From the NCBI GenBank assembly GCA_951813565.1, contig OX638351.1, positions 3,872,001-3,936,000 on the forward strand: DNA of 64,000 nt, written 5' to 3'. Under the pieces are notes generated by a model that saw only the letters and a program-made list of their open reading frames with translations, ran no database searches and had not been told where the DNA came from. A program made the position numbers and the translations under genes. This DNA comes from an uncultured Poribacteria bacterium. Lineage in GTDB: Bacteria; Poribacteria; WGA-4E; WGA-3G. Shown here piece after piece: positions 27,211 to 60,924 of this stretch; positions within the stretch are counted from its first letter, which is position 1; each line of letters starts with the position of its first letter.

Positions 27211-27563
27211 GGGGTGTGCATAAATAATTCCGATGTTAAATATGCGCTTAAAGGTAGTCCGAACAAGCCGTGGGTTTCCGTCCACAAGTTCAAAGAGGCA
27301 CAGCATGCCACACGGGGAATGCCATAAGGCATTCGGACCCGGTGAATGACTAAAGACGAATGCGCCAAATCAACGGTATGAATGCCTGCTGGCATTCCCC
27401 GTATGGCATTCGCCATGGTTCATACCGTTGATTTCTTGATTTGGCGCATGCTGCGTTGATTTGGCAATGAATTGCGCGACTGCAAACGCATTTCTATAAA
27501 TCAAGCGGTACCTGGCGTCTGTCCCTGTCTGTGTTTATGCGCCAATATTTATGCACACCCCTC
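27209..27563. mobile_element. MITE with 18-bp perfect TIR and 8-bp target duplication
   Basis: GAGGGGTGTGCATAAATA / TATTTATGCACACCCCTC flanked by AAATAAAT on both sides. Confidence 0.85.
27300..27463. repeat. Nested cluster of ~34-bp hairpin-GTTGATT units inside a REP
   Basis: Removing it restores AGAGGC^GCAATGAATTGCGCGACT, seen uninterrupted (reverse strand) at ~48495-48526. Confidence 0.85.
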
Positions 27564-27581
27564 AAATAAATAAAACAGCGG

Positions 27582-27714
27582 TAGTGCCTCGTCAAGTGAT
27601 AATTGATGGGTCTTGAAAGTAGTCGGGAATCGGAGTTCCCTCCTACCATAAGCGTTCCATCGGTAGGAACGATCTCCGAATCGTGACGGACAATAATATG
27701 TTGACAAAGCAGTA
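27582..27714. mobile_element. Degenerate MITE-like element with two GTAG REPs
   Basis: Imperfect TIR TAGTGCCTCGTCAA / TTGACAAAGCAGTA; internal GGGAATCGGAGTTCCCTCCTAC and GTAGGAACGATCTCCGAATCGT. Confidence 0.45.
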
Positions 27715-27751
27715 GTATGAAGGGACATCCTTAGCCTATTTGGTCTTTACC

Positions 27752-28606
27752 TTATGAATGAAGTCTGTAAAATTTGATTGCGTTGTCGTGAAAGAGTTTT
27801 TTTAGCTCTTCAGGGGTACACCCTGAAACCGCTTCCTGCAGTGTTTGCACCCAACGTGGATAATCCGATGCAAGTGTTGAGACTGGCCAATCGCTCCCAT
27901 AAATAACACGGTCAAATCCAAAACATTCAATAACGTGTTCAATATAAGGCTGCAGGTCTGCAGCAGTCCAGTTCTCATGATCCGCCTCTGTTACCAACCC
28001 GGATATTTTACAATAGACGTTCGGGAAATCCGCAAGAGTCTTAATCTCCTGTTTCCAGGGTTCAAACAGCTGATTCTTGATATCGGGTTTGCCGATATGA
28101 TCTAAAATAAATTGGATATTTGGACACTGCTCTACAAGCCGAATTGCATTAGCCAGTTGCGGGTGAAAGATACATATATCGAAACTCAATCCGTAGCGCG
28201 CAAGCGTTTTGACTCCATTTATGAAGTTGGGTTGGATACAAAAATCAACATTTTCCCCTTGAATGAGACGACGAATACCTTTTACAAGCGTATCTTCAGC
28301 CAATTTTTCCACAAAGGGTGCTACTTGTTTGCCTTCTTCAAGAGGTGCCCATGCTACAATACCACGAATGCGTGGCTCTACAGCTGCAAGTGAGGTAACC
28401 CAAGCAGTCTCTTTCAGCCCATCATCCGGATGCGTATCACATTGGACAAAAACAATAGATTCTATTTCCAGATTCTCATGCGCGGTAGAATAATCATTCA
28501 GAAGATACGGTTTATTTAATCTTGGAACTTGCTTTAGCCAAGGGTATCTTAGCTGCTTCGGGTGCCATAGATGAACATGTGTATCAACAATCGGGAATTT
28601 GTCCAT
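27752..28606 (-). CDS. Amidohydrolase 2 family (sugar lactonase-like)
   Basis: DTHVHLW, LDHIGKP, KISG, YGSDWP; ATG with GGAGGTGG RBS. Confidence 0.85.
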   Translation of the reverse strand: MDKFPIVDTHVHLWHPKQLRYPWLKQVPRLNKPYLLNDYSTAHENLEIESIVFVQCDTHPDDGLKETAWVTSLAAVEPRIRGIVAWAPLEEGKQVAPFVEKLAEDTLVKGIRRLIQGENVDFCIQPNFINGVKTLARYGLSFDICIFHPQLANAIRLVEQCPNIQFILDHIGKPDIKNQLFEPWKQEIKTLADFPNVYCKISGLVTEADHENWTAADLQPYIEHVIECFGFDRVIYGSDWPVSTLASDYPRWVQTLQEAVSGCTPEELKKLFHDNAIKFYRLHS

Positions 28607-28893
28607 TGTCCACCTCCAATATGCAAAGGATTGGTATATTTTATTGTTTTTGTCTAAAATTGTCAATCAATTAATAACCACATCAGGACATTTTATTCTT
28701 CAAAAGTCTTAATCATTATTATTAAGGCTTTTCGCTGTGTATCAATGTAAATGTTCAAAAGAGAAAATAAATAGTCCTACTCCATATTAAAATGATTGAC
28801 TCATAAATCCTTCTACGGTATAATCAAGAGAACATTGGAACTTCATTACCAGAACGATACGTTGGACACTTTTCATCAATAAGGAGATAATCT

Positions 28894-29691
28894 ATGTATG
28901 AAAAAATGATATTCATCCTAACCTTAAGTATTTGCGCGCTATTTCTCACTGTTCTTTCCGTTAATGCACAATTTCCTGAAGATGGTGTCGTGGGGTACTG
29001 GCCATTTGACGATGGGACAATTAATGGCAACACTGTTCAAGATGTGTTGGGTGAAAACGACGGTACACTTGACGGAAATCCTAAGTCTGTTGCTGGTAAA
29101 GTTGGCAAGGGTCTTGAATTTGATAGTGACAACTTTGTCCATATTCCTGGTACAGATTCGTTGAATTTCAATGGTAAGGAGGCAATGACTGTTGCTGCGT
29201 GGATAAATGGTGATAGCGATTCTCCTGTAGACGGTGCTGTTCCCGGTGTATGCTGCGGAACGATTGTTGCGCAACGCGATGTAGACGGTTGGGCACTACG
29301 GTTTGATGGTAGAAATGCAGCAAGCGAATTAGAATTTATTACGCAACCGGCTTGGCAAGGCGATGGTGGATTTGGCGTTGCTGCCCAGCCAAAAGGTGAA
29401 TGGCATCATCTTGTTGGAGTCGTTGACGGAAAGCAGAAATTTCTGTACCTTGATGGCAAATTAGCGAAGGAAGGTAATTTCAACGGTCCGATGTCAACAG
29501 GTGGCACAGAAACTGAGATTGGCAGTGCTCAGAAGGATGGGGGCTTCATAGGAATTATTGATGAGGTTGTAATTTACAATAGGGCACTTTCTGAAAAGGA
29601 AGTTGAGCAGCTTTTTGCTGCAGAAGGTCTTCCTGTGCAACCCCAAGGTAAACTTGCTATCCAGTGGGGACAGATTAAATCTTCTTTTTAA
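28894..29691 (+). CDS. Exported LamG/concanavalin-like domain protein with conserved C-terminal tail
   Basis: Signal peptide; GYWPFD, WHHLVG, IDEVVIYNRALS; tail PVQPQGKLAIQWGQIK. Confidence 0.85.
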   Translation: MYEKMIFILTLSICALFLTVLSVNAQFPEDGVVGYWPFDDGTINGNTVQDVLGENDGTLDGNPKSVAGKVGKGLEFDSDNFVHIPGTDSLNFNGKEAMTVAAWINGDSDSPVDGAVPGVCCGTIVAQRDVDGWALRFDGRNAASELEFITQPAWQGDGGFGVAAQPKGEWHHLVGVVDGKQKFLYLDGKLAKEGNFNGPMSTGGTETEIGSAQKDGGFIGIIDEVVIYNRALSEKEVEQLFAAEGLPVQPQGKLAIQWGQIKSSF

Positions 29692-30100
29692 CACTCCCCC
29701 GTCAAATCCCCATGCTTTAGCTTGTGGGATGTCCACGGCTAACAATGTGATGGACATCACAAAATGTCCAGCGAAAGCGGAATAAAACCCATCGCTATAA
29801 CTAAATCTATAAAGTTGGTGGATAGCGTCCATATCAAGCTACTGCAGTAATGCAGACTGGAATGCGTGAGCGGAGGCAACCCCTCCCGAAGTCTAAGGAC
29901 TTGTCGCGTGGCGTGCCTGGTAGAAAGGGCAGCTATAAAATGGGTGGAAACAGAGCCAACCCACGACATTGCGAAAAATAAATCAAACGGGCAGGCTTGG
30001 CTGCCTAAAGTGGAGCGACAATAAGACGGTGGACGCTAAGCGAAAACCGCAGTCGCGAGGAAGCACAAGCCCCTACCTTTAGGTAGTGGGTACCTATGAC
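29692..30100 (+). mobile_element. Non-autonomous derivative of the TnpB element (both ends, no tnpB)
   Basis: 35-bp left end identical to 20779-20813; 119-bp right end matches 22028-22146 (1 mismatch); unrelated ~250-bp interior. Confidence 0.85.
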
Positions 30101-30184
30101 AAGGTTTTCATTTGAGATAGGCGGATTCACGTGTCCGCCATTTTCCAACTCAGTAGATACCACAAACGACCCAAAAGAAAAAAT

Positions 30185-30982
30185 ATGATTTCAAAGATAC
30201 TTATAATCCCCATTTTGAGTGTGAGCCTAATGTGTTTTGTTATTTCTAATTCTAATGCACAACTCCCAACAGATGGTGTCATTGGCTACTGGTCCTTTGA
30301 TGTTGGTACAATTAATGGTAAAACCGTTCAAGACATATTAGGTGAGAACGATGGTGAATTGGATGGAAATCCTAAAGTTGTTCCCGGTAAGGTTGGAAAA
30401 GCACTTGAATTCAATGGCGATAATGCCGTTCGCATACAAGGCAACGACTCGTTAAACTTCAACGGCGCCAAAGAAATGAGTGTCGTTGCTTGGGTTAATC
30501 CTGCAAGTGCTAAGCCTGTCAAAGGTGTAATCCCTGATACATGTTGCGGTACCATTGTTGGTCAACGGGATGCTGAAGGATGGGTACTCCGATTTGATGG
30601 GAGAAATGCAGGTAAGGAGATGTTACTTATAGCTCAACCAGGATGGCAAGGACACACTACCCTCGGCGTCCCTCCGTTTGCCCAAAACACCTGGCATCAC
30701 TTAGTTGGTATTGTTGATAACGACAAGCTGCTGCTTTATGTTGATGGAAAATTAGAAAGTGAATTCAAATACGACGGTCCGATGTCGACGAAAGGGACAA
30801 TGACCGAGATTGGGAATGCCAAGGCAGACGGAGGCTTTATTGGTATCATTGACGAAGTTCTGATTTACAACCGAGCGTTATCCGCTAACGAAGTGCGACA
30901 GGTCTTCAATGCAAAGGGACTGCCCGTTAAACCTCAAGATAAGCTCGCTATACGTTGGGGACAAATTAAAAAAGTACAGTAG
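30185..30982 (+). CDS. Exported LamG domain protein (tandem paralog of 28894-29691)
   Basis: Aligns along its length with the upstream gene; tail PVKPQDKLAIRWGQIK. Confidence 0.85.
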   Translation: MISKILIIPILSVSLMCFVISNSNAQLPTDGVIGYWSFDVGTINGKTVQDILGENDGELDGNPKVVPGKVGKALEFNGDNAVRIQGNDSLNFNGAKEMSVVAWVNPASAKPVKGVIPDTCCGTIVGQRDAEGWVLRFDGRNAGKEMLLIAQPGWQGHTTLGVPPFAQNTWHHLVGIVDNDKLLLYVDGKLESEFKYDGPMSTKGTMTEIGNAKADGGFIGIIDEVLIYNRALSANEVRQVFNAKGLPVKPQDKLAIRWGQIKKVQ

Positions 30983-31070
30983 CGATTTGAAATTTATGAT
31001 GTTGCGATAAGGGAAGGAAATTATAAGGATTTACTGCTATTCCTATTTTCTAATTTACCATAAATCAATC

Positions 31071-31117
31071 AAAAAGAGCACATTCTATTGCATTACATAA
31101 TAGAATGTGCTCTTTTT
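31071..31117. terminator. Bidirectional intrinsic terminator
   Basis: AAAAAGAGCACATTCTATT...AATAGAATGTGCTCTTTTT between convergent genes. Confidence 0.8.
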
Positions 31118-31159
31118 ATTTAGAAAATTGTAATAGACGTTAATCAGATAAAACTTCAA

Positions 31160-31951
31160 TTAATAACGGGCTTTTACATTACCCCACGTAGTCGCCATTT
31201 TGTCTTCTGCTTTAACAGCTGTAATTGTCGGTGCAAGACCTTTTTCCATGAGCGTCTCAATATCGTCTTGTTCCAAGGCTACACTGAAAATTGCAACCTC
31301 GTCAACAAACACATTTCCAAACCGACCGGCACAACAAGTATCGTTACCGATAAAGACAGGACCAATATCTGCATCAAGTTGAGTTTTATTCAGGTCCATA
31401 GAACTCTCTACCTTGCCATCAATATAGATGTTCCATTCACCCGAATTGCTGTCAAAAGTGGCAGTGTAAAGGTGCCAATCGGTAATATCATCAGGGCCGA
31501 CAGCATTATCACTCCAAGCTCCAGGTTTGTTCCAACAGCCACCATTGCACAGTGCCCACGCAACATTCTTTGTATTTACAATAGGATGGAGAATGAAGGC
31601 ATTCCGTTTGTCTATCATAAACCCATGCTGATTCCAAGTATCCGTTTTGCTTTTGACCCAAATAGAAACAGTGATAGCATCCCGCGGATTCTCATGACCT
31701 GGTATTTCAACGTATGCTCCTACTCCATCCAATTCAAGTGCTTTACCAAATTGTCCATCAACCCATTTAGCGTCACCTTGTAGAGTGCCATCCAGTTCAT
31801 TACCTGAAAGATCCTCCGCAACATCACCTTTACCTTCATCAAACAACCAGACACCAACAAGTGTCTCTGGATCAATTTCTGCTTCTGTTTGAATGACCAT
31901 AAAACCAAAACTTAAACATACGAGAATTGCTACTAAAACACACAACTTCAT
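31160..31951 (-). CDS. Exported LamG domain protein
   Basis: Signal peptide; GVWLFDEG.G, WHLYTATFD, VDEVAIF; tail AVKAEDKMATTWGNVK. Confidence 0.85.
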   Translation of the reverse strand: MKLCVLVAILVCLSFGFMVIQTEAEIDPETLVGVWLFDEGKGDVAEDLSGNELDGTLQGDAKWVDGQFGKALELDGVGAYVEIPGHENPRDAITVSIWVKSKTDTWNQHGFMIDKRNAFILHPIVNTKNVAWALCNGGCWNKPGAWSDNAVGPDDITDWHLYTATFDSNSGEWNIYIDGKVESSMDLNKTQLDADIGPVFIGNDTCCAGRFGNVFVDEVAIFSVALEQDDIETLMEKGLAPTITAVKAEDKMATTWGNVKARY

Positions 31952-32327
31952 AATAGTATTAACCTCCTACATATTTTTCGTAGACTTTGAATTAAAGTCT
32001 ATGAAAATAGTAACTTACACAAACACTTTCGTGTTAAATACACTGGACACATGATGTGGGTAACCATTGTTGTATAAGTTCAACTGTAATAATTTTGCTC
32101 AGTAATTCACCTCAAATAATTTCCTCTGTTGTGGCAGAGAATTTTGTGGCTCTCAACTCTTGTGTGAACACAGAATTTAAGCAAATATAAAATCTCAACC
32201 TTCAATAGCGAATTTTCGGGCGGTTAACATCCTACCCAATTCGGAGTAATTATACAAAAAGTGCCAATTCTGATCAAGTGTTTTTTATGTAAAGTTTTTC
32301 AAAGTCTAAACCAACTTATTGTAGGAC

Positions 32328-32361
32328 GAAATCAACTCTAAATGTGCGTATGGCATTCAAC
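32328..32361 (-). repeat. Degenerate 34-bp hairpin-GTTGATT unit
   Basis: Reverse complement GTTGAATGCCATACGCACATTTAGAGTTGATTTC, sitting at GTAGGAC^GATTCCC. Confidence 0.6.
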
Positions 32362-32595
32362 GATTCCCTATGCCTGCCCTACGTAGAAAACTCTACCGAT
32401 CCTTGACAACTTGAACCTGTGAAACAAAATATCTACTTACCCTCAGAACAGGGTTATTTAGTTTTCGCTTTTTCTGGCGTATTTCATCACAACGTTAATG
32501 TTTTATAGCAGCATTGTGGTCGGGTTTCGCTATCACCCTATCCATAGCCTCAACTTAGAAAAAAGATGTGCGATGCAAAGTAGTAGGCACACGCC

Positions 32596-32795
32596 GGGGA
32601 ATGCCATAAGGCATTCATACCCGGTGAATGACTAAAGACGAATGCACTTGGTAGAATACGCTTTTGGTATTCTACATGATTCGCCATGATTCATACCGTT
32701 GATTTCTTGATTTGGCGCATGCTGCGTTGATTTGGCTGAATCATGCGGAATACCAAAAGCGTATTCCGCCAAAAGGCATTCATAGCGTTGATTTA
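32596..32795. repeat. Nested cluster of hairpin-GTTGATT units
   Basis: Starts at GTAGTAGGCACACGCC^G; shares long blocks with 27314-27463. Confidence 0.85.
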
Positions 32796-32994
32796 TGGGT
32801 TTCGCAAGCTCTACCCGACGGACGATATAAACTCACAGTAAAACTCAGTAACTGATAATTCTTAAAACTAAATAACCCTACCCTCAGAAAACAACTTCTT
32901 GAAATTAACGGCAATATCTGATATAATGATAATATCAACTTCCCAATGGTATAGAAAAGCAATCATCAGGATAGGTAACACAGGAGACAACATC

Positions 32995-35211
32995 ATGAAT
33001 CGTTTTGAAAGAAAACAACGTTCACTGAATGCCTGCTTGATTGCTGGGATCGTTCATCTCTGCCTGGCTATCTTTTTAACATTTTTCTATTACACACGAG
33101 TTGCTAATGACTTTGAAGATGTTGTCGGTGTGGAATTTGTAGATATGAATGACCCCACCAAACAGAAACGCCGACTAAAACGTCCCCCACCCAAGCAGAT
33201 GCTTACGCCAAAACAGACGAAATCGTTAACCGCGGGACGCCCGAAACATGTAGCCTTAACCGCATCTTCTAATTTAATCGATGAAACCGTTCGCCCCTCC
33301 GAGAAGATTCTTATGCATAATGCTACAGAAACTATTTCTGAAACAGCGAAACAACTTCCTGATGTAACAACAGACACCCGAGAGATAAATAGTCGCACAG
33401 CATCAATCGCTAAATCTGTTACAAGCCCCTTCGAAATTACCTCTGGCGCGGGCAAAGAAAGCCTACGACAACGGGTTAAAGGTGATGGTGAAAGCGGATT
33501 TCACAGACTGGAGACAACCGGTGCTGCCGAAATTGGGCCTATTGGTGAGGGAATTGGGTTGGGTGGAGACGGTGGAAGTGGAAAAGGAATGGGCACCATG
33601 GACGCTTCTAACCCATTTGCTAAAGCACTCAAGCAAATTGCTGACCATATTATTGCTACTCGGACACTTGATAAAGTTAATGTAGTCTTTGTGCTTGATA
33701 CAAGTGCAAGCATGGGCGATAACATCCAACAGGTTGCCGAAAACCTATTTAGTATGACAGATGCATTCGATCTCGTCAATCTGGAATATCATTTGGGAAT
33801 GTCTGAATTCAGTGTTCGGGAAGGTGGACAAGAGCTTGAAACCCGATCTCTTGCCCCTGATGTGGGTTACCTCCGGCGTCGTATGCAAAAAGTAAAGCTG
33901 AGTGGAGATGAAAATGCGCTTGACGCGCTTATAGACACGTTGAATTTTATGGATTTTCACGCCGATGCAGACAAACACTTAATCTTGGTTACAGATGAAC
34001 CAGCAACAACAAGTATGAGAGAAGAAGGCGCATCCGAAACGGTGCAAGCGAAAGTGATTGATCAGTCTCAAATAGAGGATATTCACGTTAACGTTCTCGG
34101 ATTTCCCGAACCTTTTCAGCAGGAATTAGCTACTACTACAGGTGGCGTATGGCAGCAAATTCCGGGTAGCGTCTATAACCCTGCTGCTCTCCCAACTAAT
34201 CGCGCTGGAAACCAAAAATTTCTCAAAGTTTTCCGAGATATTGCTACTGATATTCGGAAGGGCGGTGCCAAAAAGTATTTTAGCCTTGATTTGAAGTTTG
34301 ATATGCCTGTTGAAGATGGGGAGATTCCTTTAGATAAATTACAACAAACATTCAAGGAAAACAGGGTTGGGTTGAAAAATTACACCTTTCGCTCTGAAAA
34401 TGCAACGGTTTTAGATAACAATCATAACGGTTTGTGGGTAATTACTGACAGAAAGAACAAGCAAATTTATGGCATATACAGAATTGAAAATAGATTAGAC
34501 GTTTATGCGGGTATCTACCCAAAAAACTGGAACTTGGGTGAGAATCTTATTGCGCGGACCCAGCAACACGGCAAAAGGTGGGTGCTAACGCATTCTCGGA
34601 ATAACCAAATATACACATTCCTGAAAGATAAAAACCGCCTTAACGTTTACACTGGAGGACAACCAGGGACGGCTTCCAATAATGCTGCAGAACCAATTGT
34701 AGACATTATGGTGATGTTAGACTATAGTAGGAGTATGGGCGGAAAGTCGCAAGCGGTCATGCTTGGCTTAAGCACGCTCATTGGTCGATTATCAATTTTA
34801 CCGATTAAATATCGGATTGGACTCATCCGTTTTGCTGAAGCAAAAGATGCTATTAAAGCTGTTGATGGTATCGTCGTGTCTCAGATGCCGCTTAATGAAG
34901 TTTTGATAGACAGTCTTATGGAAGCCCCATTTGGTGGTGATGAACATCTTATTGACGCTATTGTTGATGGAGTGCCTCAGGTAAAATTTAGCCCTTATGC
35001 AAGTCGATTCCTACTTATTTTAACTGATGAACCTACTACAGGAAAATATCCTGCAGAGCAAGCATTGGAGCTATGTCAATCGTTAGGTATTACTGCCTAT
35101 GTCATCGGTCATCCGAATCCTAATGATTTTCAAACGACTCTTGCTACACAAACCGGAGGAATCTTTTTTATAATGCCTAAGTTTTTAGAGAAGGCATATC
35201 CAAACCAATAA
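32995..35211 (+). CDS. Membrane-anchored protein with two VWA domains
   Basis: Two MIDAS motifs (DTSASM, DYSRSM), each followed by TDEP; N-terminal TM and Pro/Gly-rich linker. Confidence 0.8.
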
Positions 35212-35233
35212 CTTGACGAAAAGAGGTTATTTT

Positions 35234-35752
35234 ATGACGACATCAACAAGCACGCAACAACATCGGGAGATCGCTGCTGAAGGAGGTCCTGTATCAGTTG
35301 CTATTGTGACCGTAAGCGATTCGCGCACACCAAAAACAGACACAAATGCTGCATTTCTACGCGAACAACTTGAAGCAGAAGGAAACAGCGTAACAGCCTA
35401 TCAAATTATAAAAGATGAACCCGACCAAGTCTCTGATGTATTGGACAAAATGGCGGAAACAGACGCTCAGGTCATTTTATTTAACGGCGGAACCGGTATT
35501 GCACCGAGAGACACGACTTTTGACGTGCTTGACCGTAAATTAGAAAAGACGTTACCGGGATTTGGGGAACTCTTTCGGATGTTTAGCTACGATCAAGTCG
35601 GTGCTGCTGCAATGCTATCGCGTGCGACAGCGGGCGTCTATCGTGGAAAAGTAGTTATTTCTACACCAGGTTCAAATGCTGCTGTGCGGTTGGCGTGGGA
35701 AAAACTCATCGGACCAGAACTGCAACATTTGGCATGGGAGGTCGGGCGTTAA
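35234..35752 (+). CDS. MogA/MoaB molybdenum cofactor biosynthesis protein
   Basis: [27 protein letters not shown]. Confidence 0.9.
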
Positions 35753-35940
35753 TTCACTAAACACCAATATTTTCTTTCTTGTAGGCGCGGTTTGAAACCG
35801 CGCCTTTTTTGTTTGAATCTTGGATTATTGGACTTCTTGTGGGAGCGCTTTGTAAGCGCGATTTTTGTGCATTGCATCGGCGTTGAAAACGCCTCCTACA
35901 ATAATTGTCGGGTTTCGGGACTTAACCTATGGACTATTTT

Positions 35941-36804: not shown

Positions 36805-36851
36805 TTTTCTTTCTTCTAATCTTGTGGGTGAAGTACAAAATGTATGGGTTT

Positions 36852-38372: not shown

Positions 38373-38390
38373 AGAAATAAATGATTGCCA

Positions 38391-40535: not shown

Positions 40536-41640
40536 TTATTTTATCATGTTAACTGCGAGTTTAGGTTTTGAAGCGAGATATTTGATTGTATCAGAAATAG
40601 CTGTATACCCTGCAAATCGTCCTACCGATAATGCTGTATTACGATTTGCTGCCATGACTTGTGGTATAGAACCGCATCGGACAGGCGAGGCATCTTCTAC
40701 AAGCACCGTCCCCCGCATCCAGTGCAACTTGTTCTCTATTGACCAATGTCCACGCCGTCCAGTCAGTAAGCGTTCGGCAGATGCTGCTGCGGGATTTAGA
40801 CTTGTTATACCATAGTGGACTTTGTGTGTTTCTTCTTGTGTGTTCAGACTTTTGTCCGTCCAATGATATTGGATCACTTGTGCTATCCCTGGCCAGTCCA
40901 GATACGCATTGAGACTTGTGCTTGCTTTGGGACACCTTGTCTCAAGTCTACCATGTGATTTTTCAACTGTCTCGTAAATGTGGATCGGTTTTCCTAAAAC
41001 AGGGTGTGTTGTCTCCTCAGAAAGTGTGTCAGGAACGTCTTGAAAAAGTTTGTCAATCGCATCTAAAAGGTGAGGTTGGTTGTCTTTGACAGGGAGCACA
41101 TAGTCGCCTTCACGCTCTATGATGGCGTGGCAGAAAGTTCGCTGTGTCAAAAGCGCATCCGGGGAATGCCAAACGCGCATTCGGACCGTTGATTTGGTTG
41201 TGATGACTTTACCCCTCACATCAAAGGTCTTGAGGATCTCTGTTGAGATCGGTATTTCGTTGGTTTTGTTGCTAACACTTTGCTGTGTGAGGGTAGCCCC
41301 TAACTCATGCGAAACGACAGAGAGCAAGTGGCTTATTATCGCACCACTTTTTGGGAGGCACGCATCGTTTTGCCATCTATAGCGACTGCGTCAAGGCATC
41401 CTGTCAAATCCGGACGACTTCTAACACGGTGTTTACCCATTGTGTCAGGGTTTCTTCTAATGCCTCAATATCTAACTTTTTCAATAGATTATGGATAGTT
41501 GAAGCACAAGGTGTTATCTTCTTTGTGAAATCGAGTGCTGGTTGTGAGCGGGCCCAAATAGCGATAGATGTCGTTTCCCTTTATTCTTGCGGGATCTGAA
41601 AGTTTTGCTAACATATCTATTAAGTGGCAAGATTTTCTTC
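40536..41640 (-). pseudogene. Degraded ISAs1-family transposase
   Basis: AIDGKT, NEIP, DALLTQ, VKDNQ, HGRLETR and HWSIENKLHW motifs; 5' part (RKNKGKRH) out of frame; 36-bp insertion at 41161-41196; 5' boundary approximate. Confidence 0.8.
41161..41196 (+). repeat. 36-bp hairpin-GTTGATT unit inside the ISAs1 gene
   Basis: GGGGAATGCCAAACGCGCATTCGGACCGTTGATTTG; removal restores KVITTDALL. Confidence 0.85.
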
Positions 41641-41912
41641 TTGTCATTATTCACCTCAAAATAGGTCGTTTTAAGGTGAACTATAGCAGATATGGTGTAA
41701 AAAAACACGCTATATCTGCTTTTCATAAAAAATAAACACTTGTGAAAAAATTTCGAAAACTGAATAACTCTGATTCTAAAATGTATGGATTGAATATTAA
41801 AAGGAATTCGGCTAAAATACTGTTAAAAAAGCGAATTATAGGCACAACAAATTACTGACATAGATATTATTTAACAGATTGTGCCTTGTACACAGTCAAA
41901 ACAGGATTTAAC

Positions 41913-48227: not shown

Positions 48228-48332
48228 CTATGTTACAGTGAAATCTAAAATTAACGACTTGTGCTAGTTAACTGTTTATTTTTGTTGTTTTCACACATAT
48301 TGGGTTTTTTTCTATAAACATATCGTCCCTAC

Positions 48333-48366
48333 CAAATCAACGCCAAATGCGCTTATGGCATTTGGC
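48333..48366 (-). repeat. 34-bp hairpin-GTTGATT unit
   Basis: CAAATCAACGCCAAATGCGCTTATGGCATTTGGC; removal restores the palindrome GTCCCTAC^GGGAC. Confidence 0.85.
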
Positions 48367-48543
48367 GGGACTGAAGAGCATATCAACCAGTAGGAAACAC
48401 GGACAAAACGTTCTGCTTATGTGAAATAGTATGTTGCAAAAAGTTATTTAGCACAACTCGTAAAATTACTTGGACAATTCTTTATAGGTTTGCTGCGTTT
48501 GTAGTCGCGCAATTCATTGCGCCTCTTCCTGTAGGAGCGACCC

Positions 48544-48576
48544 GCCAAATGCCAAAAGCGCATTTGGCGTTGATTC
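48544..48576 (+). repeat. 33-bp hairpin-GTTGATT unit
   Basis: GCCAAATGCCAAAAGCGCATTTGGCGTTGATTC; removal restores GTAGGAGCGACCC^GCAGGTCGCGAC (compare the uninterrupted REP at ~24763-24787). Confidence 0.85.
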
Positions 48577-48692
48577 GCAGGTCGCGACTTTAAAACTGTA
48601 GAACACTTTGTCCGTGCCGAGTGACAATGTCCAGTTAATTCTAAAATCCACTATAAATGCCTCACAAAATAAGCGGTTGATTCCTTATTTGA

Positions 48693-49949: not shown

Positions 49950-49958
49950 ATTATGGTT

Positions 49959-50798: not shown

Positions 50799-50854
50799 TT
50801 AACTACTTCTCCTATGTTGTTTCAGTTGCTTACAATGTCCTGTGTTAATTACTC

Positions 50855-52555: not shown

Positions 52556-52650
52556 TACTGCGTAAATCTTATGAAGTTCATTTGATGTAATGATGCGTAA
52601 ATTTTTCAACATAATGTGTCGTGGTAAACAGCAGGAAATTTTGGAGAATT

Positions 52651-53604
52651 ATGAAACTAATCCAATTTCACTTACCTAATTTAGGTAAGCGAGTCGGGAT
52701 TGTCACCCGTGAACACGAAGTTATTGATGTAACCAGTGATGAATCACCAGGTGTTTTAGAAATTCTTGAGCTTGCCCATAAAGAACGGGTGACGCTGGGC
52801 GTTCTTTTGGCGGATATCCAAGAACAAGTTTCGGCACCACCACCGATGCGATTCACAGCATTCCAAGACCCTGAGTCAGTTCCACAAGAAGAAAACGGGC
52901 TAACCTTAGAGAAATTGGACGTTTCGCCAGATGAAAAAATACCACATCTATTGGTCCCAATAGACGCACCTGAAGTATGGGGGTGCGGTGTTACCTACAA
53001 GCGAAGCGCGGATATGCGCGATGATGATACGCAACAAGACATCTACAGTCGTGTTTATCATGCAGATAGACCTGAAATATTTTTTAAAGCGACACCATCA
53101 CGTTGTGTCGGATCGAACGATTTTATCGGGATTCGTAGCGACTCTATTTTAACCGCAACCGAACCTGAACTCGCTTATGTTCTGGGGGCAGAGGGTGAAA
53201 TCCTCGGATATACGCTTTGTAACGATGTTTCTGCTTGGGATATTGAGCGCGATAACCCGTTGTATCTGCCACAATCAAAGGTATTTTATGGATGCTGCGC
53301 GCTCGGACCTATGTTTATTACGACTTCTGAAGTTGATGATCCGTATAATCTGGAGATGAAATGCACTATCCTTCGTGATGAAAAAGAAATTTATGAGGGA
53401 AAAGTAAATACCTCTCAAATTAATTGGAAGTTTGAACAACTTACTGAATTTTTGATGCGGGATAACCCGATCCCTTTTGGTACTGTCGTTTCTACTGGCA
53501 CAGGGATAATTGTCCCAAACGATTTACCGCTTGCGCCGGACGATATTGTCCAGATAGAAGTTGAAGGTTTCGGAACACTTTCAAATCCTGTGAAACAACT
53601 GTAA
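52651..53604 (+). CDS. Fumarylacetoacetate hydrolase family (2-keto-3-deoxy sugar acid dehydratase-like)
   Basis: EVWGCGVTY, RPEIFFK, EPELA, NDVSAWDIE, NPLYLPQSK. Confidence 0.85.
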   Translation: MKLIQFHLPNLGKRVGIVTREHEVIDVTSDESPGVLEILELAHKERVTLGVLLADIQEQVSAPPPMRFTAFQDPESVPQEENGLTLEKLDVSPDEKIPHLLVPIDAPEVWGCGVTYKRSADMRDDDTQQDIYSRVYHADRPEIFFKATPSRCVGSNDFIGIRSDSILTATEPELAYVLGAEGEILGYTLCNDVSAWDIERDNPLYLPQSKVFYGCCALGPMFITTSEVDDPYNLEMKCTILRDEKEIYEGKVNTSQINWKFEQLTEFLMRDNPIPFGTVVSTGTGIIVPNDLPLAPDDIVQIEVEGFGTLSNPVKQL

Positions 53605-53614
53605 GAGGTGTCGT

Positions 53615-54724
53615 ATGCAAGACACCGAGTCATATATCGGTAGACACAAAACTGAATTAGATACGCCCGCGCTGTTAATTGATCTGGATAAAATGGAAGC
53701 CAATATCCAGAAGATGGCGGATTATTTTACTAATGTCAGCGCGGAACTCAGACCCCATCTCAAAACGCATAAAACGCCGATTATCGCACATAAACAGATT
53801 GAAGCGGGAGCAATAGGCATAACTTGTGCTAAATTGGGTGAAGCGGAGGCAGTAATTCATGCGGGAATTCGAGATGTCCTAATTGCCAATCAGATTGTCG
53901 GTCCACATAAGATAGCACGTCTTATCAACCTTGCAAAGCATTCTGAGATTATGGTTTCTGTGGACAACTCTCACAATGTGCAGGCTATTTCCGAAGCAGC
54001 AACAGCAAAAGGGGTAACTATCAGAATCTTGGTGGAAGTCAACATCGGGATGGATCGGTGTGGTGTTGAACCCGGTCAACCAACACTTGCGTTGACACAT
54101 CAGGTATGCCAAAGTCCAAACCTGAAGTTTGAAGGATTGATGGGATATGAGGGGCATACCGTCGCAAAACCGAACAGAACCGAACGTGAGACTGCGACAC
54201 GAGAAGCCATGCAACGCTTGATTGAAACGAAACATTTTCTTGAAGAGCATAGTGTAGAGGTTTCAATTATGAGCGGCGGTGGCACAGGCACTTTTGACAT
54301 CACAGGGAGTATTCCCGAAATGACGGAGGTGCAGGCTGGTTCTTATGTCTTCATGGATTCGACCTATCACAATGTTGAAGGCATTGGAGGAAAGTTTGAC
54401 AACGCATTGTCAGTTTTGGGCACTGTCGTCAGTTGTCCCGCACAGAATCGCATCATCGTAGACACGGGTTTGAAAGTGCTTACGAAGGAGTTCGGCATTC
54501 CACAACCGATTGTTGTTGCTGGACTCGAAATGACGGGTCTTTCCGAAGAGCATGGGAAAATGCTGGTTTCCAACGGAGATGTTTCCCTTAAACTGGGAGA
54601 TAAACTTGAAATTTTACCTACACACTGTTGTACCACTGTTAATCTGCACGATAGATACTACGGCATCCGTAATGAGATTGTCGAATCTGTCTGGGAAATT
54701 ACCGCAAGAGGAAAATCACAATAA
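53615..54724 (+). CDS. DSD1/D-threonine aldolase family PLP enzyme
   Basis: [31 protein letters not shown]. Confidence 0.88.
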
Positions 54725-55044
54725 TGATCACAACTACAACGAATACGATTGAAGGCAGACAAGTTGGACAATACCTTGGCTTAGTTACAGGTGAGGCAAT
54801 CATGGGGGCAAATATCTTTCGTGATTTTCTCGCTGGTATTACAGATATGATTGGCGGCCGCTCCGAAGCTTATGAAAGCAAACTTGCTGATGCACGTGAG
54901 ACCGCAATCCGAGAAATGCAAGAAATCGCGCAACGGCAAGGTGCTGATGCTGTCCTCGGTATTGATATTGACTATCAGGTGCTTGGTTCCAGTAACGGTA
55001 TGCTGATGGTGACCGCAACCGGAACTGCTGTTAAGTTAAAATAA
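54724..55044 (+). CDS. YbjQ/UPF0145 family protein
   Basis: [32 protein letters not shown]. Confidence 0.9.
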
Positions 55045-55072
55045 ATGAAGGTTGTACATAAAATAACCAATT

Positions 55073-55349
55073 TATAGTGAACTTTGAAATTATTGGGACT
55101 CTTTGCTAAACTTGTCTTGGAAAGATAATGGACAATAGAAGTTGTAGCACAAACTTTTAGTTTGTGCCTTATGAGACGCAAACTAAATGAAGATTAATTT
55201 ATTAATTCGGTAATTTTGGAGAAAGATCCAGTGCGGTTGGGAAACCGCACCTACCGGGTTTGGGAAAAATTAGAATTACCGAAATATTTTCTTAATCTTC
55301 ATAAAGTTTGCGCTACAGAAGTGTCCCATTAATTATAGGTTTTACTATA
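55073..55349. mobile_element. TATAGTG-type MITE carrying copy 2 of the 175-bp composite repeat (55143-55317)
   Basis: Imperfect TIR TATAGTGAACTTTGAAATTATTGGGAC / GTCCCATTAATTATAGGTTTTACTATA. Confidence 0.65.
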
Positions 55350-55554
55350 AATGTGTGTTTAAAAGTAGTAGGCACGCGCCGCGTGCCGTAACAACTTCAA
55401 AGAGGACACAAATGCTGAACGCGTATTTAGCGTTGATTTAAACAGTCAACTCGTGCAAAGATAAAAAGTGTTGGGTTTCACGTTGTTCAACTCAACCTAC
55501 AACATTTTCTAAACCCACGCTCAATTAAAAAACAAAATTTATAGGAGGACTGCG

Positions 55555-56733
55555 GTGCAAAATTTAATTTCAACATATAAACTAAATATTAAATGTAAAC
55601 GTCATGACATAATAGGACTGCTTGCTACGATTATTTTTCTGTCCACACAGTTAAGCGCAAATGCTTATATTTCAATACCTTATACCATTCCGCAAATTGT
55701 CAGTGAAAGTACCAACGTTGTTTTTGGAACTATCACAGAGGTTAACACCAAACGACAGACAGCTGATATTAAGGTTGAACAAAACCTCAAAGGTCGCAGC
55801 GAATTTGACGTGATTAGAATTCGCTTTGATATTTTTAAAGGGGAAGCAGACCATAGAAAAGAGATTGCGCGTTTTCTAAAGCAGGGTGAACCGATTGTTG
55901 TTTGTTATGAACAAAAAGAAGGGCGGATCAACAGTATTGCACATACAAGAGGAAAATGGTTTCAACTCATGGTTACAAAGGATAAAGAGAGAGGTTGGGG
56001 TAGGTGGGGGTTCACCCATTTTGAAGTCAAACTCAATCAGTTCAAAGTTTCAAAAAGAGATTCAACACCCGAATTCCAGAAAGAGGTACGCGCTGTCCTT
56101 AATGGAGATATAATCCGCCTCTTTCTTCTGAACAGAAAAAACTATCAAAAGGAAGTTCCTGTTATTTCCAGCATTGATAAGGTGGGAAAACGTTGGATTG
56201 CCTTTGATGAGACAACCGATCGCAACCTGCCAGGGCTTAGTAAAACTGACATATTATGGCTTGGCTACCGCGCAATTGATGATGGCAGATACCTCCTAAA
56301 TAAGAACCAAGAGAAACGGATCAGAGATTTTGTCAAGAACGGCGGCATTGTCATTGTTTCTGGTCAGGATTGTGATACAGATCGTCCAAGCAGAACCGAT
56401 TGGTTACCTGAACCTCTCAAAGGTGTAGAAAGCCCCCGTCGAAATGACTTCCAGCCTACATCCAAAGCAGGTTCCCTTTTTAAAGCACCGCATCAAATCC
56501 GTTCAGGACATCTTTCACTTGACGACTCCTGGAACGGGTGGAACGATAAATATGAAGTGTTAGCCACAACCAATAATGGCAAGGAAATTGTTGTTGCTCA
56601 ATTGAGATATGGGAAAGGCATGTATGTGATCACAAACCTACGCAATGATAGTAAAGAACAGGTTGCTCAAAACCACAAGATGCTTGAGAATCTTGTGCAT
56701 TTTGCTGTAGAATTCTTGGGTAAATCCAAATAG
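55555..56733 (+). CDS. Exported hypothetical protein; C-terminal domain shared with 61014-61790
   Basis: 392-aa ORF after an AGGAGG RBS with a hydrophobic N-terminal segment; DFVKNGG..DWLP..YGKG..MLENL. Confidence 0.6.
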   Translation: MQNLISTYKLNIKCKRHDIIGLLATIIFLSTQLSANAYISIPYTIPQIVSESTNVVFGTITEVNTKRQTADIKVEQNLKGRSEFDVIRIRFDIFKGEADHRKEIARFLKQGEPIVVCYEQKEGRINSIAHTRGKWFQLMVTKDKERGWGRWGFTHFEVKLNQFKVSKRDSTPEFQKEVRAVLNGDIIRLFLLNRKNYQKEVPVISSIDKVGKRWIAFDETTDRNLPGLSKTDILWLGYRAIDDGRYLLNKNQEKRIRDFVKNGGIVIVSGQDCDTDRPSRTDWLPEPLKGVESPRRNDFQPTSKAGSLFKAPHQIRSGHLSLDDSWNGWNDKYEVLATTNNGKEIVVAQLRYGKGMYVITNLRNDSKEQVAQNHKMLENLVHFAVEFLGKSK

Positions 56734-56750
56734 TACGGGAGTTATAACGT

Positions 56751-58286
56751 ATGAGAAAAACCACATGGATATTGACCTTAAGTCTCATATCGGTTTTTGT
56801 CTGTTTCACAGCCACAGCACATGCAGTTATTCCGCAGCTTCTCGGACCACTTACTGCCCTGCTTAGCATCATCCCGCAGATACTCGCCTTTGTCGGCGTT
56901 GCTGTTCTAACCGCGCTTGTATTTGCACGCGATACAACAAAGATGTATTTTTACAAGCTGCGAGATTTTCTGACTGTCCGCAGAGTGATTGTCTCTGTAA
57001 TTAGTTTGGTTGTCCTAATTGGGTTAGCGGTATTGACCTATCAATTTGTTGGGAAAGGAATAAAAGAAAATGTTACCACGACAGGTACAGACGATCAGCG
57101 TGCTGGCACAAAAAATGTAAGAACAGGCACGGCATGGACAACGTTCCGAAGCAATGCAAATCGCACAGGGCACGTTGATGACCTACCCGGTCCTACAAAC
57201 GGAACCCCTTCCTGGGTTTTCAAAGCTAAAGGGAGAAAAACGGTTCAATTCCTTTCATCACCAACAATCGTAGGTAACCGTCTTTATATTGGTTCGCTCC
57301 AAGGTGCAGTTTTTTCTGTTAGTGGTGCAACTTATTGTATAGACACGGATACGCAGGAAGTTGTCTGGCGGCACGATTCAGAAATACCTATCGTTTCCTC
57401 ACCTGCTGTTGTTGCAGGTAGGGTTTACATCGGTGAAGGTTTTCATGAAGATAGTGGTTGCCGACTCCGATGTCTTGATGCAAAGACTGGCGATCCTATC
57501 TGGAGTTTCACTACTGCAAGCCATGTGGAGTCTACACCATTCATTACCCAAGGAAGGCTCTATTTTACTGGTGGTGCGGACGGTATTTATTGCCTTGACG
57601 CGCTGGCAGGTGAGCAAATATGGCACTTTCCTGCTGTTCATGCAGACATGTCCCCAATAGTTAAAGATGGTAAGGTTTATTTTGGTACCGGTTACGGTGA
57701 ATATAAAATCTATGCTGTGGATGCTGAAACAGGTGCCGAGATATGGTCAAAACCCATGCCGTATCCGGTCTGGGGCAGCCCAAGTGTGCACGACAACTTA
57801 GTCTTTTTCGGTTTAGGCAGAGGTGATTTTTCTCAAAGTCATCCTATTCCAAAGGGGAAAGTTGTCGCGCTAAACACCGAAACAGGCGATATCGCCTGGG
57901 AATATGAGGCAGCAGACGCGGTCCTTACAGCGATTGTCGTACACGATGATTTTGTAACTTTTGGTTCCCGCGACGGTTTTGTGTACACACTCACAGCAAC
58001 AAGTGGCGAACTCCATTGGGAAACCGATCTTGGTGCAGTCATTGTGTCATCACCTGCTGTAACACAAGAGGCTGTTTATGCTGCAACGGAAGCCGGAGTA
58101 ATCTACTGTCTCGCCATTGATGATGGCAGCATTATATGGGAATATGATACACAGACCGTTGAATATGGGTTGAAACTCCTTTCTTCTCCAGCTATTGCAG
58201 ATGGAAAACTATACATCGGTTCAAGTGACCGGTATATTTTATGCTTAGGTGGAAAAGAGCTTGTTCCAACCGTTGAAGATCGTTAA
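56751..58286 (+). CDS. PQQ-like beta-propeller repeat membrane protein
   Basis: Repeated SSP...G.VY.G...LDA.TG..IW blades; N-terminal TMs. Confidence 0.85.
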   Translation: MRKTTWILTLSLISVFVCFTATAHAVIPQLLGPLTALLSIIPQILAFVGVAVLTALVFARDTTKMYFYKLRDFLTVRRVIVSVISLVVLIGLAVLTYQFVGKGIKENVTTTGTDDQRAGTKNVRTGTAWTTFRSNANRTGHVDDLPGPTNGTPSWVFKAKGRKTVQFLSSPTIVGNRLYIGSLQGAVFSVSGATYCIDTDTQEVVWRHDSEIPIVSSPAVVAGRVYIGEGFHEDSGCRLRCLDAKTGDPIWSFTTASHVESTPFITQGRLYFTGGADGIYCLDALAGEQIWHFPAVHADMSPIVKDGKVYFGTGYGEYKIYAVDAETGAEIWSKPMPYPVWGSPSVHDNLVFFGLGRGDFSQSHPIPKGKVVALNTETGDIAWEYEAADAVLTAIVVHDDFVTFGSRDGFVYTLTATSGELHWETDLGAVIVSSPAVTQEAVYAATEAGVIYCLAIDDGSIIWEYDTQTVEYGLKLLSSPAIADGKLYIGSSDRYILCLGGKELVPTVEDR

Positions 58287-58429
58287 CTTTGGTATAGATT
58301 TTAATAATATCTTATTCTATTTACACGCTAAGAATTAGTAAATTGACTATAATTTATCTTGTAAACCGCGAACTCGCAATCACGTTTACTTACAAATGAT
58401 CAATTTAACTTCTAACAAGGAGAACGAAA

Positions 58430-59284
58430 ATGAAAAAGTTTTTGATTGCAATTACACTATTGCTATTCCTCACAAGTGTTGCAGCACATGCACAGTGGCG
58501 CAGCAAAACACATGACGTTTACAACGCACTTCAAAATACTCTTGACATTAAGATTGATGGTGAACTTGATGACGCTGAAGGGTGGGAAGGTGTATTTGAT
58601 ACAGTCAAAGGGACCAATGGAGAACCATTCTGCGGTGTCAAAAATGATACTGATGGGGCAGGAGCAGAGAAAGCTTTTGAATCCCATGGAGGAGGCGATT
58701 GGAAAGGGGCTGATGACCACGAAACCTGTTTTGCAATTGTCTGGGAACCAGATGCCGTTTATATTGGACTAAGTGTTACTGATGACGAGCATCAAAATGG
58801 CGGTGGACAATGGAACGGTGATAGCTTGCAGCTTGCATTTGAACCGACTGGTAAGCGCGACGGAGGACTAACACTCTTTCTCTATAACGTTGCGTTAGGC
58901 AACGATGCAAAGAACATGCTTCCTGTTCATAATGAGACAACAAACGGTGGTCCAGGACTTGTTGCTGGGGAAGATGTCGCCATAACCCGAAACGAAAACG
59001 AAAAAGAGACTTATTATGAAATTGCAATTACTCCTGAAGATTTGGGCTTGAATAGTCAGTTTAAAGAAGGATACGAATTCGGAATCGGAATTTGTGTCAA
59101 CGATGGCGATAAAGCCGCCGGCCAAGAAGGGCAAAAAGGGTGGAGTGGATGGTATCCACGTGCGGTTGTTCACGGAAAAAATTCTGAAAATACAGGGCTT
59201 GTCATTCTCACTGATGAAGTTCTTGCTGTTGAACCTTCAAATAAGTTAACAACAACTTGGGGTAAACTAAAATCAACCCAATAG
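58430..59284 (+). CDS. Exported CBM9/DOMON-like sugar-binding protein
   Basis: Signal peptide; IDGELDD..W, VTDDEH, WNGD, VNDGD; tail AVEPSNKLTTTWGKLK. Confidence 0.7.
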   Translation: MKKFLIAITLLLFLTSVAAHAQWRSKTHDVYNALQNTLDIKIDGELDDAEGWEGVFDTVKGTNGEPFCGVKNDTDGAGAEKAFESHGGGDWKGADDHETCFAIVWEPDAVYIGLSVTDDEHQNGGGQWNGDSLQLAFEPTGKRDGGLTLFLYNVALGNDAKNMLPVHNETTNGGPGLVAGEDVAITRNENEKETYYEIAITPEDLGLNSQFKEGYEFGIGICVNDGDKAAGQEGQKGWSGWYPRAVVHGKNSENTGLVILTDEVLAVEPSNKLTTTWGKLKSTQ

Positions 59285-59557
59285 GTGTCAACTTAAGGAT
59301 ACACCTTCTTGTGGGAGGGGTTTGTAACCCCGATTTAATTAGTTTAGGTTCACAAAAGCGGGGTTACAAACCCGACAAATGCCAAAAGCAGAATCAACGC
59401 CGAGCGCGCGTATGGCACTCGTCGCATTTGGCGTTGATTTGGCAGCATGCCATACGGGGAATGCCAACAAGCATTCATACCGTTGATTTGGCGCATGCTG
59501 CGTTGATTCACTCCCACAAGAGACAATCTGGTAATTATGTGCTTAAATTGACGCCTA
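59282..59557. mobile_element. MITE with a long (24-bp) target duplication
   Basis: TIR TAGGTGTCAACTTAAG / CTTAAATTGACGCCTA (14/16); TGGGGTA(A/G)ACTAAAATCAACCCAA at 59258-59281 and 59558-59581. Confidence 0.8.
59374..59510. repeat. Four hairpin-GTTGATT units (34+34+34+35 bp), two nested inside two others
   Basis: Removal restores CGGGGTTACAAACCCCTCCCAC, the exact reverse complement of the REP at 59311-59332. Confidence 0.9.
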
Positions 59558-59755
59558 TGGGGTAGACTAAAATCAACCCAATAACTGTTTTGACATAAGC
59601 TAAAACTGCTAAACCGTAGCGGAAAAACAGCCGCTACCTAATCTGTTTGGGCAGAAATACCTGCCCAATTTTCTAACACAGGAAGCAACGCTGTTGCTCT
59701 TTCAAAACTTCCACTGCTAAGGTGGAATATAATTAATATAGAGAGGTAAATTTAG

Positions 59756-60601
59756 ATGAAAAAACAGGTTTTTGTATTTGCTGCACTATTTGCAGCAGTA
59801 ACTCTACTTACAATTAATGTCGCAGATGCACAGTGGCGTAGTCCAACACACGATGTATACAATGCCCCATCTGGTGTTGACGTTACCATTGATGGTAATC
59901 TTGACGAATGGGGTGAGGTTATGGATGCTGTCACTGGAACTGACGGTTCCCCGTTTTGCGGCGTAGAATTTGAAGGCGTCGGCGGCGCAGTTAAAGTTTT
60001 TGAAGAACACGGTGGTGGTAAATGGAACAGTGCTGATGACCAAACAGTCTGTTTCATGATTGCTTGGAACCCCGATGCGGCTTATCTTGCACTGAGTGTT
60101 ACTGATGACGAGCATCAAAATTCCGGTGCTGCATGGAATGGTGATGCCGCACAAATCGCATTTGAACCAACTGGCAAGCGCGATGGAGGGTTAGCACTCT
60201 TTCTCTATAACGTTGCATTAGACAACAATGCAGAAAATCTCATCCTTCATAATGAGAGAACAAACGGACAACCTGGTCTTGAGGCAGAGAGAGATTTTGC
60301 AATCACTCGAGACGAGGGTGCTAAGAAAACCTACTACGAATTTAAATTCACTCCTGCGAATTTCGGTCTTGCTGGTTCATTTAGTGCAGGTATCGAAGTC
60401 GGTTTAGGTATCTGTGTCAATGATGGCGATATAGACACTCCTGGGCAAAAAGGGTGGGGTGGTTGGTATCCGCATTCTGTTGTCCACGGAAAAAATTCCG
60501 AAAAGACGGGACTTGTTGTGCTTAGCAGCAATGCGGTAACCGCTGTTGAACCAGCTGATAAACTTACTACTACATGGGGTAATTTGAAATCTACCCAGTA
60601 G
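59756..60601 (+). CDS. Exported CBM9/DOMON-like protein (tandem paralog of 58430-59284)
   Basis: Shares AQWRS.THDVYNA, AFEPTGKRDGGL and VVHGKNSE; tail AVEPADKLTTTWGNLK. Confidence 0.7.
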   Translation: MKKQVFVFAALFAAVTLLTINVADAQWRSPTHDVYNAPSGVDVTIDGNLDEWGEVMDAVTGTDGSPFCGVEFEGVGGAVKVFEEHGGGKWNSADDQTVCFMIAWNPDAAYLALSVTDDEHQNSGAAWNGDAAQIAFEPTGKRDGGLALFLYNVALDNNAENLILHNERTNGQPGLEAERDFAITRDEGAKKTYYEFKFTPANFGLAGSFSAGIEVGLGICVNDGDIDTPGQKGWGGWYPHSVVHGKNSEKTGLVVLSSNAVTAVEPADKLTTTWGNLKSTQ

Positions 60602-60632
60602 CAGCTTAACACTTATCAGTAATCTTTAGTTC

Positions 60633-60664
60633 CATTATAGTGGTTCATTCGAACCACTATAATG
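60633..60664. terminator. Probable terminator hairpin
   Basis: CATTATAGTGGTTC-ATTC-GAACCACTATAATG, 14-bp perfect stem after the stop codon. Confidence 0.6.
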
Positions 60665-60732
60665 AAAAATATGTTTCAATCAAATTAGATGTTCCCGGTG
60701 AACTTTCAATACCGCTTCTGTATTAGGCTCTA

Positions 60733-60924
60733 ATACCAATTCTAAAATACAATGTCCCATTTAACATACTGCAATTTAATGGAATATCTATAGAAGATAA
60801 GAATGTCCGAGGCGCCAAGTCATGGCGAATACCATACGCGTATTCGCCCAAGTGCGCTTGGCAATGAATTGCGCGACTACGAACAGATAATTTGAAAATG
60901 AGAAGTTATTTTCAGAAATGGTAT
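60733..60924. mobile_element. MITE-like element with a REP interrupted by a 47-bp hairpin (60814-60860)
   Basis: Imperfect TIR ATACCAATTCTAAAATA / TATTTTCAGAAATGGTAT; AGGC^GCAATGAATTGCGCGACTAC split by the insert. Confidence 0.6.

Follow-up and report, generated by a model that had tools for sequence, protein, structure and literature searches.

Can a folded DNA of about 35 nt be mobile in its own right, and what could move it? This question is raised by a 64,000-nt stretch of the genome of an uncultured Poribacteria bacterium (the window; C1:3872001-3936000 of G000, a single-contig, 5.43-Mb genome), in which an initial annotation had described, at nine places, a family of short hairpin units ending in a GTTGATT tail and had proposed that they are small structured non-autonomous insertions. 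The malate synthase encoded there shares 77-91% identity with proteins from Candidatus Poribacteria records. We found the described sequence in 9/9 of these intervals, and both filled/empty comparisons and pairing tests support the proposal. The unit family is real, mobile and restricted to one bacterial family, it is similar to the small dispersed repeats (SDRs) of cyanobacteria, and its mover was not found. That the unit is mobile as such is, in our view, highly probable. For the way it moves we favor, at roughly even odds (about 0.5), a tiny non-autonomous element that enters by a base-exchanging insertion, with a mover that would act in trans on single-stranded DNA.

In the unit, a stem of 9 bp is capped by C-N4-G-C, which folds into a tetraloop plus a single bulged C, and is followed by the tail GTTGATT and 1-2 further bases, for a total length of 33-36 nt; a variant carries a two-base bulge. 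Using a looser model, we counted 553 intact units in G000 (399 symmetric and 154 bulged), and a recognisable 3' arm plus tail occurred at 970 sites. The unit is a short imperfect palindrome at high copy and is mostly extragenic, with 529/553 copies outside crude open reading frame (ORF) calls. Genome-wide, GTTGATT was directly preceded by a hairpin at 296/2358 sites, compared with 1-6 sites for six control words and 33 for the overlapping word TGTTGAT, and CGTTGATT was present in 1270 copies, where an order-3 Markov model predicts 406. Unit tails made up 15/33 of the GTTGATT sites of the window (counted by eye). A covariance-model scan of the window recovered full units at six places with 30-54 bits (48335-48366(-), 48544-48575(+), 59392-59423(-), 55407-55438(+), 41161-41194(+), and 32330-32361(-)), three of these matches belonging to the training set. 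The initial annotation did not recognise the family, and Rfam gave 0 matches above the gathering threshold in the window (one far-below-threshold match lay at 48336-48574). No published description was found in the titles and abstract openings searched.

The units of the window and their hosts, several of which are repetitive extragenic palindromes (REPs) carrying a GTAG or GTGG tag, are as follows.

27300..27463 (+): composite of nested units in a GTAG-REP, inserted at C^G
32328..32361 (-): degenerate single unit, 30 bits; empty junction not found
32596..32795 (+): composite of nested and tandem units; restored junction not found in the genome
40536..41327 (-): ISAs1-family transposase gene, 3' part, frameshifted and carrying a unit (NF033564, E 4e-39; compared with the intact copy of G006)
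41161..41196 (+): single 36-nt unit, a clean in-frame insertion at C^G with 12 extra codons
48333..48366 (-): one TG-ending unit of 34 nt, inserted at C^G within a short REP hairpin's loop; 54 bits
48531..48589 (+): GTAG-tagged REP with the 48544 unit in its loop; empty loop variants counted
48543..48577 (+): single C-ending unit; C at 48543 is its putative first base and pairs with the tail's first G to close the stem
55407..55440 (+): degenerate single unit, 34.9 bits; flanks unalignable in relatives
59374..59510 (+): array of two units in a GTGG-tagged REP, inserted at C^C; restored junction occurs 6 times
60814..60860 (+): unit whose tail has been lost, in a GTAG-REP, at C^G; restored junction occurs 36-38 times

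Filled and empty states of the same site were found in an ISAs1 gene pair and in near-identical repeat copies. The sister genome used for the filled/empty comparison, G006, carries 299 units, and its matching ISAs1 gene is without the 36-base unit, the flanks being about 93% identical. This is the sole clean cross-genome pair, since REP clusters at orthologous intergenic sites are missing or unalignable in relatives. The intergenic DNA was missing or unalignable around five other window sites, and 27300, 32328, and 32596 fell outside the DNA compared in that analysis; in L222 and L223, the orthologous malate synthase gene is not followed by any of the REP cluster of 27300. Three insertion sequence (IS) copies in G000 share the 41161 unit, which indicates one event older than the IS duplication. 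As for the claim that excision restores the reading frame, the unit is indeed a 12-codon in-frame insertion, but this ISAs1 copy was already frameshifted upstream. Besides the frameshifted copy (window 40536-41800), several other ISAs1 copies in G000 are partial or have an internal deletion beside the unit site.

Within G000, many hosts occur in both filled and empty state, and the hosts include REP loops, stems and tags, the loops of other units, and an IS gene. The annotation had held that excision restores the host. The restored junction occurs elsewhere in the genome for 4/9 places (27300, 48333, 59374, and 60814) and 41161 is empty in G006, but nothing was found for 32328, 32596, 48544, and 55407. 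The junction of 27300 has 20 genome occurrences when 8+8 nt are compared or 3 with 10+10 nt, and that of 48333 occurs 5 times, in a host family with empty copies at 97-98% identity. For the 48543..48577 unit (fold z -3.4, 10-bp outer stem) the junction is not clean, since the best empty paralog (96% identical) differs at both junctions. Insertion sizes, obtained at 285/1619 tail-like sites, peaked at 34-35, 69-71, 95, 103-105, 119, and 153-158 nt, which are unit lengths and their sums. An autonomous parent or a gene cargo was also considered and rejected; the kilobase sizes, among those listed, look like neighbouring REP copies. Insertion in both orientations and the lack of a target duplication, the latter in clean filled/empty pairs, stood as first described. 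Entry into other repeats and into the unit itself, with empty sites available, is precise in the TG and CA lineages and base-replacing in the others.

The initial annotation placed the junction at C^G in nearly all cases. This dinucleotide is present at 6/9 of the places as first delimited; of the rest, 32596 has C^T, 55407 has A^A, and 59374 has C^C. A general clean C^G rule therefore lacks support in the form proposed: it fits the TG-ending lineage, but a TG|G ending was seen in only 144/315 distinct contexts, and in several host families the junction shows a loss of 1-3 bases together with an added C. An empty match at no less than 88% identity was available for 94/444 units and yielded 43 scorable pairs (88-100% identical). 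Among these, clean TG-ending insertion at C^G was scored at 11 sites in 4 hosts, six further sites in one host fit the same pattern with a nearby one-base difference, and clean CA-ending insertion at C^C was scored at 2 sites (97.5% and 100% identity); most of the remaining pairs lose target bases, gain a C, or both. Across the distinct contexts, the left base is C in 291/315, and the tail ending goes with the next base (TG|G 144, CA|C 49, and CG|C 16 of 315). For the tags of four REP families, T was present in 258/258 empty copies and C on both sides in 17/17 filled ones, with 1-4 different cores per family in the filled tags; the same tag test in relatives gave 172/173 for empty and 9/9 for filled.

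Judging from these junctions, the C that closes the stem is probably supplied by the unit itself, which takes the place of 1-2 target bases. Pairing is possible between the left C and the tail's first G, and this near-invariant C would be the true first base of the unit. Insertion would then swap the unit for 1-2 (rarely 3) target bases, and C^G would be the special case in which the swapped target base is itself C. This base-replacing junction is what our analysis adds to the initial annotation.

That stem sequence varies while pairing is kept, as the annotation had claimed, holds on copies picked by cap and tail only, blind to pairing. Among 90 distinct arm pairs, 550/720 cells were Watson-Crick compared with 440 +/- 9 in 5000 arm shuffles. 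In 50 distinct units drawn from the window and relatives (49/53 listed references plus 3 window copies), 94% of cells pair, both-side changes occur in 7/10 pairs, and the covariation score was reached by 0/500 shuffles, with slid controls far lower; relatedness among units inflates both this test and that on arm pairs. The tests support selection on pairing. On the hairpin-then-tail strand, G.T wobbles exceed A.C mismatches among distinct arm pairs (43 vs 17, p 0.001), an excess that indicates, without proof, that this strand is the folded one. We infer that the unit is recognised as a folded single strand, on the hairpin-then-tail strand.

Arrays of units in one REP host, that of 59374..59510, are polar, with inner tails ending in TG in 75/76 and last tails ending in CA, CG, or CC in 48/48 arrays. 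Each TG-ending insertion would leave a new C^G at its left edge, which would explain both arrays and nesting; slippage could contribute to the arrays. Bulged units are located mainly in the loops of symmetric units, and composites of 70-95 nt were found in several hosts. In the window, the 27300..27463 composite consists of an outer symmetric unit with bulged units in its loop, one reversed unit and a double tail, and in 59374..59510 each unit carries a nested unit (reversed at 59392-59423; bulged in the second loop). The 370 non-tandem copies of G000 share 192 flank pairs, and much, probably most, of the copy number stems from filled REP clusters copied as wholes (hitch-hiking).

Two side observations concern these composites. 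The double tail (27427-27443, 32698-32714), which we interpret as an insertion of one unit at another's foot, has 122 copies in G000, the composite occurring in several hosts. Sister hairpins, which share the cap but have a CAT(G) leader and lack the GTTGATT tail, gave 96 matches in G000, most of them as insertions that follow base 7 in the 5' arm of another unit, and three in G001 (L171, L181, and L189). One stem that had been attributed to the unit, GCGGAATAC/GTATTCCGC, belongs to such a tail-less sister insert. The 32596..32795 composite holds two sister hairpins (32651-32675(-) and 32745-32769(+)), and 60814..60860 carries another (60824-60848(+)), with a related 3' arm at 26 tail sites.

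With regard to distribution, one sequence pattern was detected in 80/111 family genomes and 0/64 other genomes of the phylum, with 0-299 copies within a genus. The covariance model matched 94/97 family genomes; outside the family its matches were weak and numbered one or two per genome. The sites that serve as hosts vary from genus to genus. Genus g9, a sister genus, contains a 32-nt relative with the same inner hairpin and a different 7-base tail, which replaces the REP loop TGT and sits in the dominant GTAG-REPs (exact copies: G106 125, G104 14, and G105 0; REP copies empty of it: 95 and 108). It may be a single event amplified with its REP; in G106 it was observed at loci L178, L182, and L199-L210. 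The one viral-contig match, inside a phage gene, looks like chance, and so do the 80 listed of 119 loci from a metagenome scan with the inner hairpin, which had random loops and no tail.

As to what moves the unit, we tentatively rank an HUH-type enzyme first and host copy-in through microhomology second. The proposal of an HUH/Y1 strand-transfer enzyme, similar to REP-associated tyrosine transposases (RAYTs) and acting outside its own GTAG repeats, has in our estimate somewhat less than an even chance of being right. According to PMC8266576, TnpA-REP cleaves single strands at C|T on the 5' or the 3' side of a REP to which it is bound, and carries out strand transfer. Several unit junctions sit at C|T. 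Genomes of genus g1 with a strong RAYT hit had a median of 33 units (25 genomes) vs 7 in the other 15 (p 0.0016), in a test whose threshold was set after the data were seen and whose genomes are kin and not independent. Ten Y1 genes were identified in G000, five of them IS605 TnpA and five RAYT-like, the latter with their own repeats. The flanks of these ten genes, and of 9/20 relatives' loci where the gene was located, are IS605 ends or the genes' own REPs, and units near Y1 genes lie inside those genes' REPs. The REP family of 48531..48589 also flanks a RAYT-like gene in L009. Immediately 5' of the unit stem is the C-ending flank, and on the opposite strand the leader is AATCAAC. Four near-identical IS605 elements (L001-L004) contain TnpA plus TnpB, one of them interrupted by another transposase gene.

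Several observations weigh against the favored reading and need to be considered with it. Under plain HUH strand transfer the target T would be retained, whereas here it is lost, and the T-to-C change could instead mean that a rare C variant is strictly chosen and then amplified. No inspected RAYT or TnpA is flanked by the unit as its own repeat, so a cognate RAYT was rejected, and there is no GTAG/GTGG guide at the hairpin foot of the unit. Units are numerous without a strong RAYT hit in G063 (189 units), G014 (66), and the single-contig G023 (42), and G122, G141, G155, and G159 have a strong RAYT hit and 0 pattern hits. The RAYT link may only reflect more REP hosts. A leading/lagging-strand bias was absent (265 vs 288, p 0.35), in a genome of weak skew with a poorly defined origin and terminus. 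Singletons show an equally strong wobble skew (32 vs 14), which may be of mutational origin, and arm pairs seen more than once give 11 vs 3 (p 0.057). Finally, when the relative from the sister genus g9 is read in the same register, its left C is unpaired with the tail.

Other candidates were looked for in G000 and its relatives. The neighbours of 54 unit loci, many in low-copy genomes, were metabolic or regulatory by eye, and none of the 22 G000 ORFs of <500 aa with units on both sides was transposase-like by eye, one being Cas1. The IS110 DEDD recombinase (PF01548) had 0 matches in G000, with a control positive in 6/14; the IS91 Y2 transposase also had 0 matches, with a control that was silent too (0/14), and GIY-YIG had three matches. 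An origin from CRISPR repeats was rejected, as the repeats of the three arrays found are unrelated to the unit. A likeness of the tail to integron attC or rolling-circle nick sites was dropped because the junction is not inside the tail. A miniature inverted-repeat transposable element of a DDE transposase would need terminal inverted repeats and a target duplication, and the clean pairs have no duplication. At L155-L157 (G000:C1:3988991-3996420), a stand-alone reverse transcriptase (RT) has as neighbours cas1 and a CRISPR array with about 54 repeats.

The strongest rival explanation, which we nevertheless consider unlikely, is copy-in by host repair or replication without a dedicated transposase: a broken or nicked 3' end that terminates in C would pair with the donor flank, copy hairpin and tail, and rejoin by 1-2 base microhomology, at the cost of 0-2 target bases. 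When parsed by hand, most classes of junction fit a shared left C and 1-2 shared right bases, and the base after the tail follows the tail ending (TG|G, CA|C, and CG|C). The presence of units in 94/97 family genomes suggests an ever-present mover, and copy-in would explain the distribution without any tested mobile enzyme. Nonetheless, microhomology of 1-2 bases can fit almost any junction, the TC ending of double-tail units is without a donor lineage, and a protein that binds the unit specifically is suggested by its fixed length, its invariant tail and the bulge.

It is also conceivable, and in our judgment quite improbable, that the unit has no independent mobility now and that a few ancient insertions were spread by REP copying, slippage and gene conversion between units. 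This would be consistent with the restriction of 370 non-tandem G000 copies to only 192 flank pairs, with the occurrence of different cores with one host-specific ending, and with intergenic regions that are unalignable or missing in relatives at five window sites. In addition, the contigs of four read runs, which we used to look for strain polymorphism and which break at repeats, contained among the matches listed no joint that skips exactly one unit. The unique insertion in the ISAs1 gene, the 315 distinct contexts, host sites that differ between genera, and 0-299 copies within one genus speak against it. Retro-insertion, in which a short structured RNA is reverse-transcribed at a target nick, is very improbable: small target losses and variable end bases are typical of target-primed reverse transcription and G000 has a Cas1-linked RT and a second RT, but RVT_1 occurs in only 59/112 family genomes, was not found in G006 (299 units), G012, G061, G034, G014, G018, or G023, and median units were 25.5 with RT vs 28 without.

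Among known systems, SDRs and REP/RAYT had been named as nearest precedents, and our comparisons support this, with cyanobacterial SDRs being the closest. SDR1-8 were reportedly described from Nostocaceae by Elhai et al. in 2008; they are said to have compensatory stems, to nest within themselves, to be 21-27 nt in size, and to have no known mover. To our knowledge, the movement of DNA elements of <40 bases has been an open question since that description. The unit is similar to SDRs, in a comparison made by description, as a very short dispersed element (<40 nt) with compensatory stem changes (reportedly an SDR feature) and precise entry into palindromic repeats. It differs in size (33-36 nt vs 21-27 nt), in having a Poribacteria host instead of Nostocaceae, in being hosted by GTAG-REPs and not by highly iterated palindrome 1 (HIP1), and in junctions that often replace target bases. 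According to PMC4390886, SDR5 is inserted between bases 3 and 4 of HIP1, and PMC5861425 reports SDRs only in Nostocaceae.

With REPs, bacterial interspersed mosaic elements and REPINs (REP doublets forming hairpins), the unit shares imperfect hairpins of 20-40 nt, hundreds of mostly intergenic copies, no target duplication, and inheritance across a family (PMC8266576, PMC6006769, PMC3116915, PMC3733652). In contrast to REP/RAYT systems, the unit is without a GTAG/GTGG or CGTC tag, has a conserved 3' tail, moves singly and not as an inverted pair, invades REPs, and flanks no inspected RAYT as that gene's own repeat. Palindrome-associated transposable elements (PATEs) are non-autonomous derivatives of IS200/IS605. 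A hairpin followed by a short single-stranded end, a single-strand logic and no duplication are also features of IS200/IS605 (mechanism in PMC8266576 and PMC6006769). However, the unit has one hairpin instead of two ends and no fixed target tetranucleotide, it is unlike the IS605 ends of this genome, and no lagging-strand bias was detected.

The unit family provides hundreds of copies per genome, a defined structure, filled/empty pairs, and a measurable junction signature (target T to C on both sides), so that candidate enzymes can be matched with concrete substrates and with the products predicted from them. If the unit is moved by a resident HUH enzyme, RAYTs would have a second class of parasite; if not, there would be an unrecognised route for short precise insertions, with possible use in genome editing. 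A broader suggestion, which we regard as rather doubtful, is that the unit represents the minimal substrate of an undescribed single-strand insertion, in which a self-closed folded DNA of ~35 nt is exchanged for 1-2 target bases, with no duplication or fixed target, by an enzyme that falls outside the recognised transposases and is shared throughout one bacterial family. SDR-like hairpins in other phyla might be moved by the same chemistry.

Some further features of the window were noted. The intergenic regions 48250-48690, 55110-55520, 59280-59600, and 60700-60900 are ~140-430 bases longer than in most relatives and are filled by clusters of several GTAG/GTGG-REP families. Upstream of a PhyH gene, a very decayed unit-like sequence (48648-48685) is kept in several relatives and may thus be an old insertion that became fixed. 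The window also contains three LamG-like genes in a row (28894-31951) and two CBM9-like genes in tandem (58430-60601).

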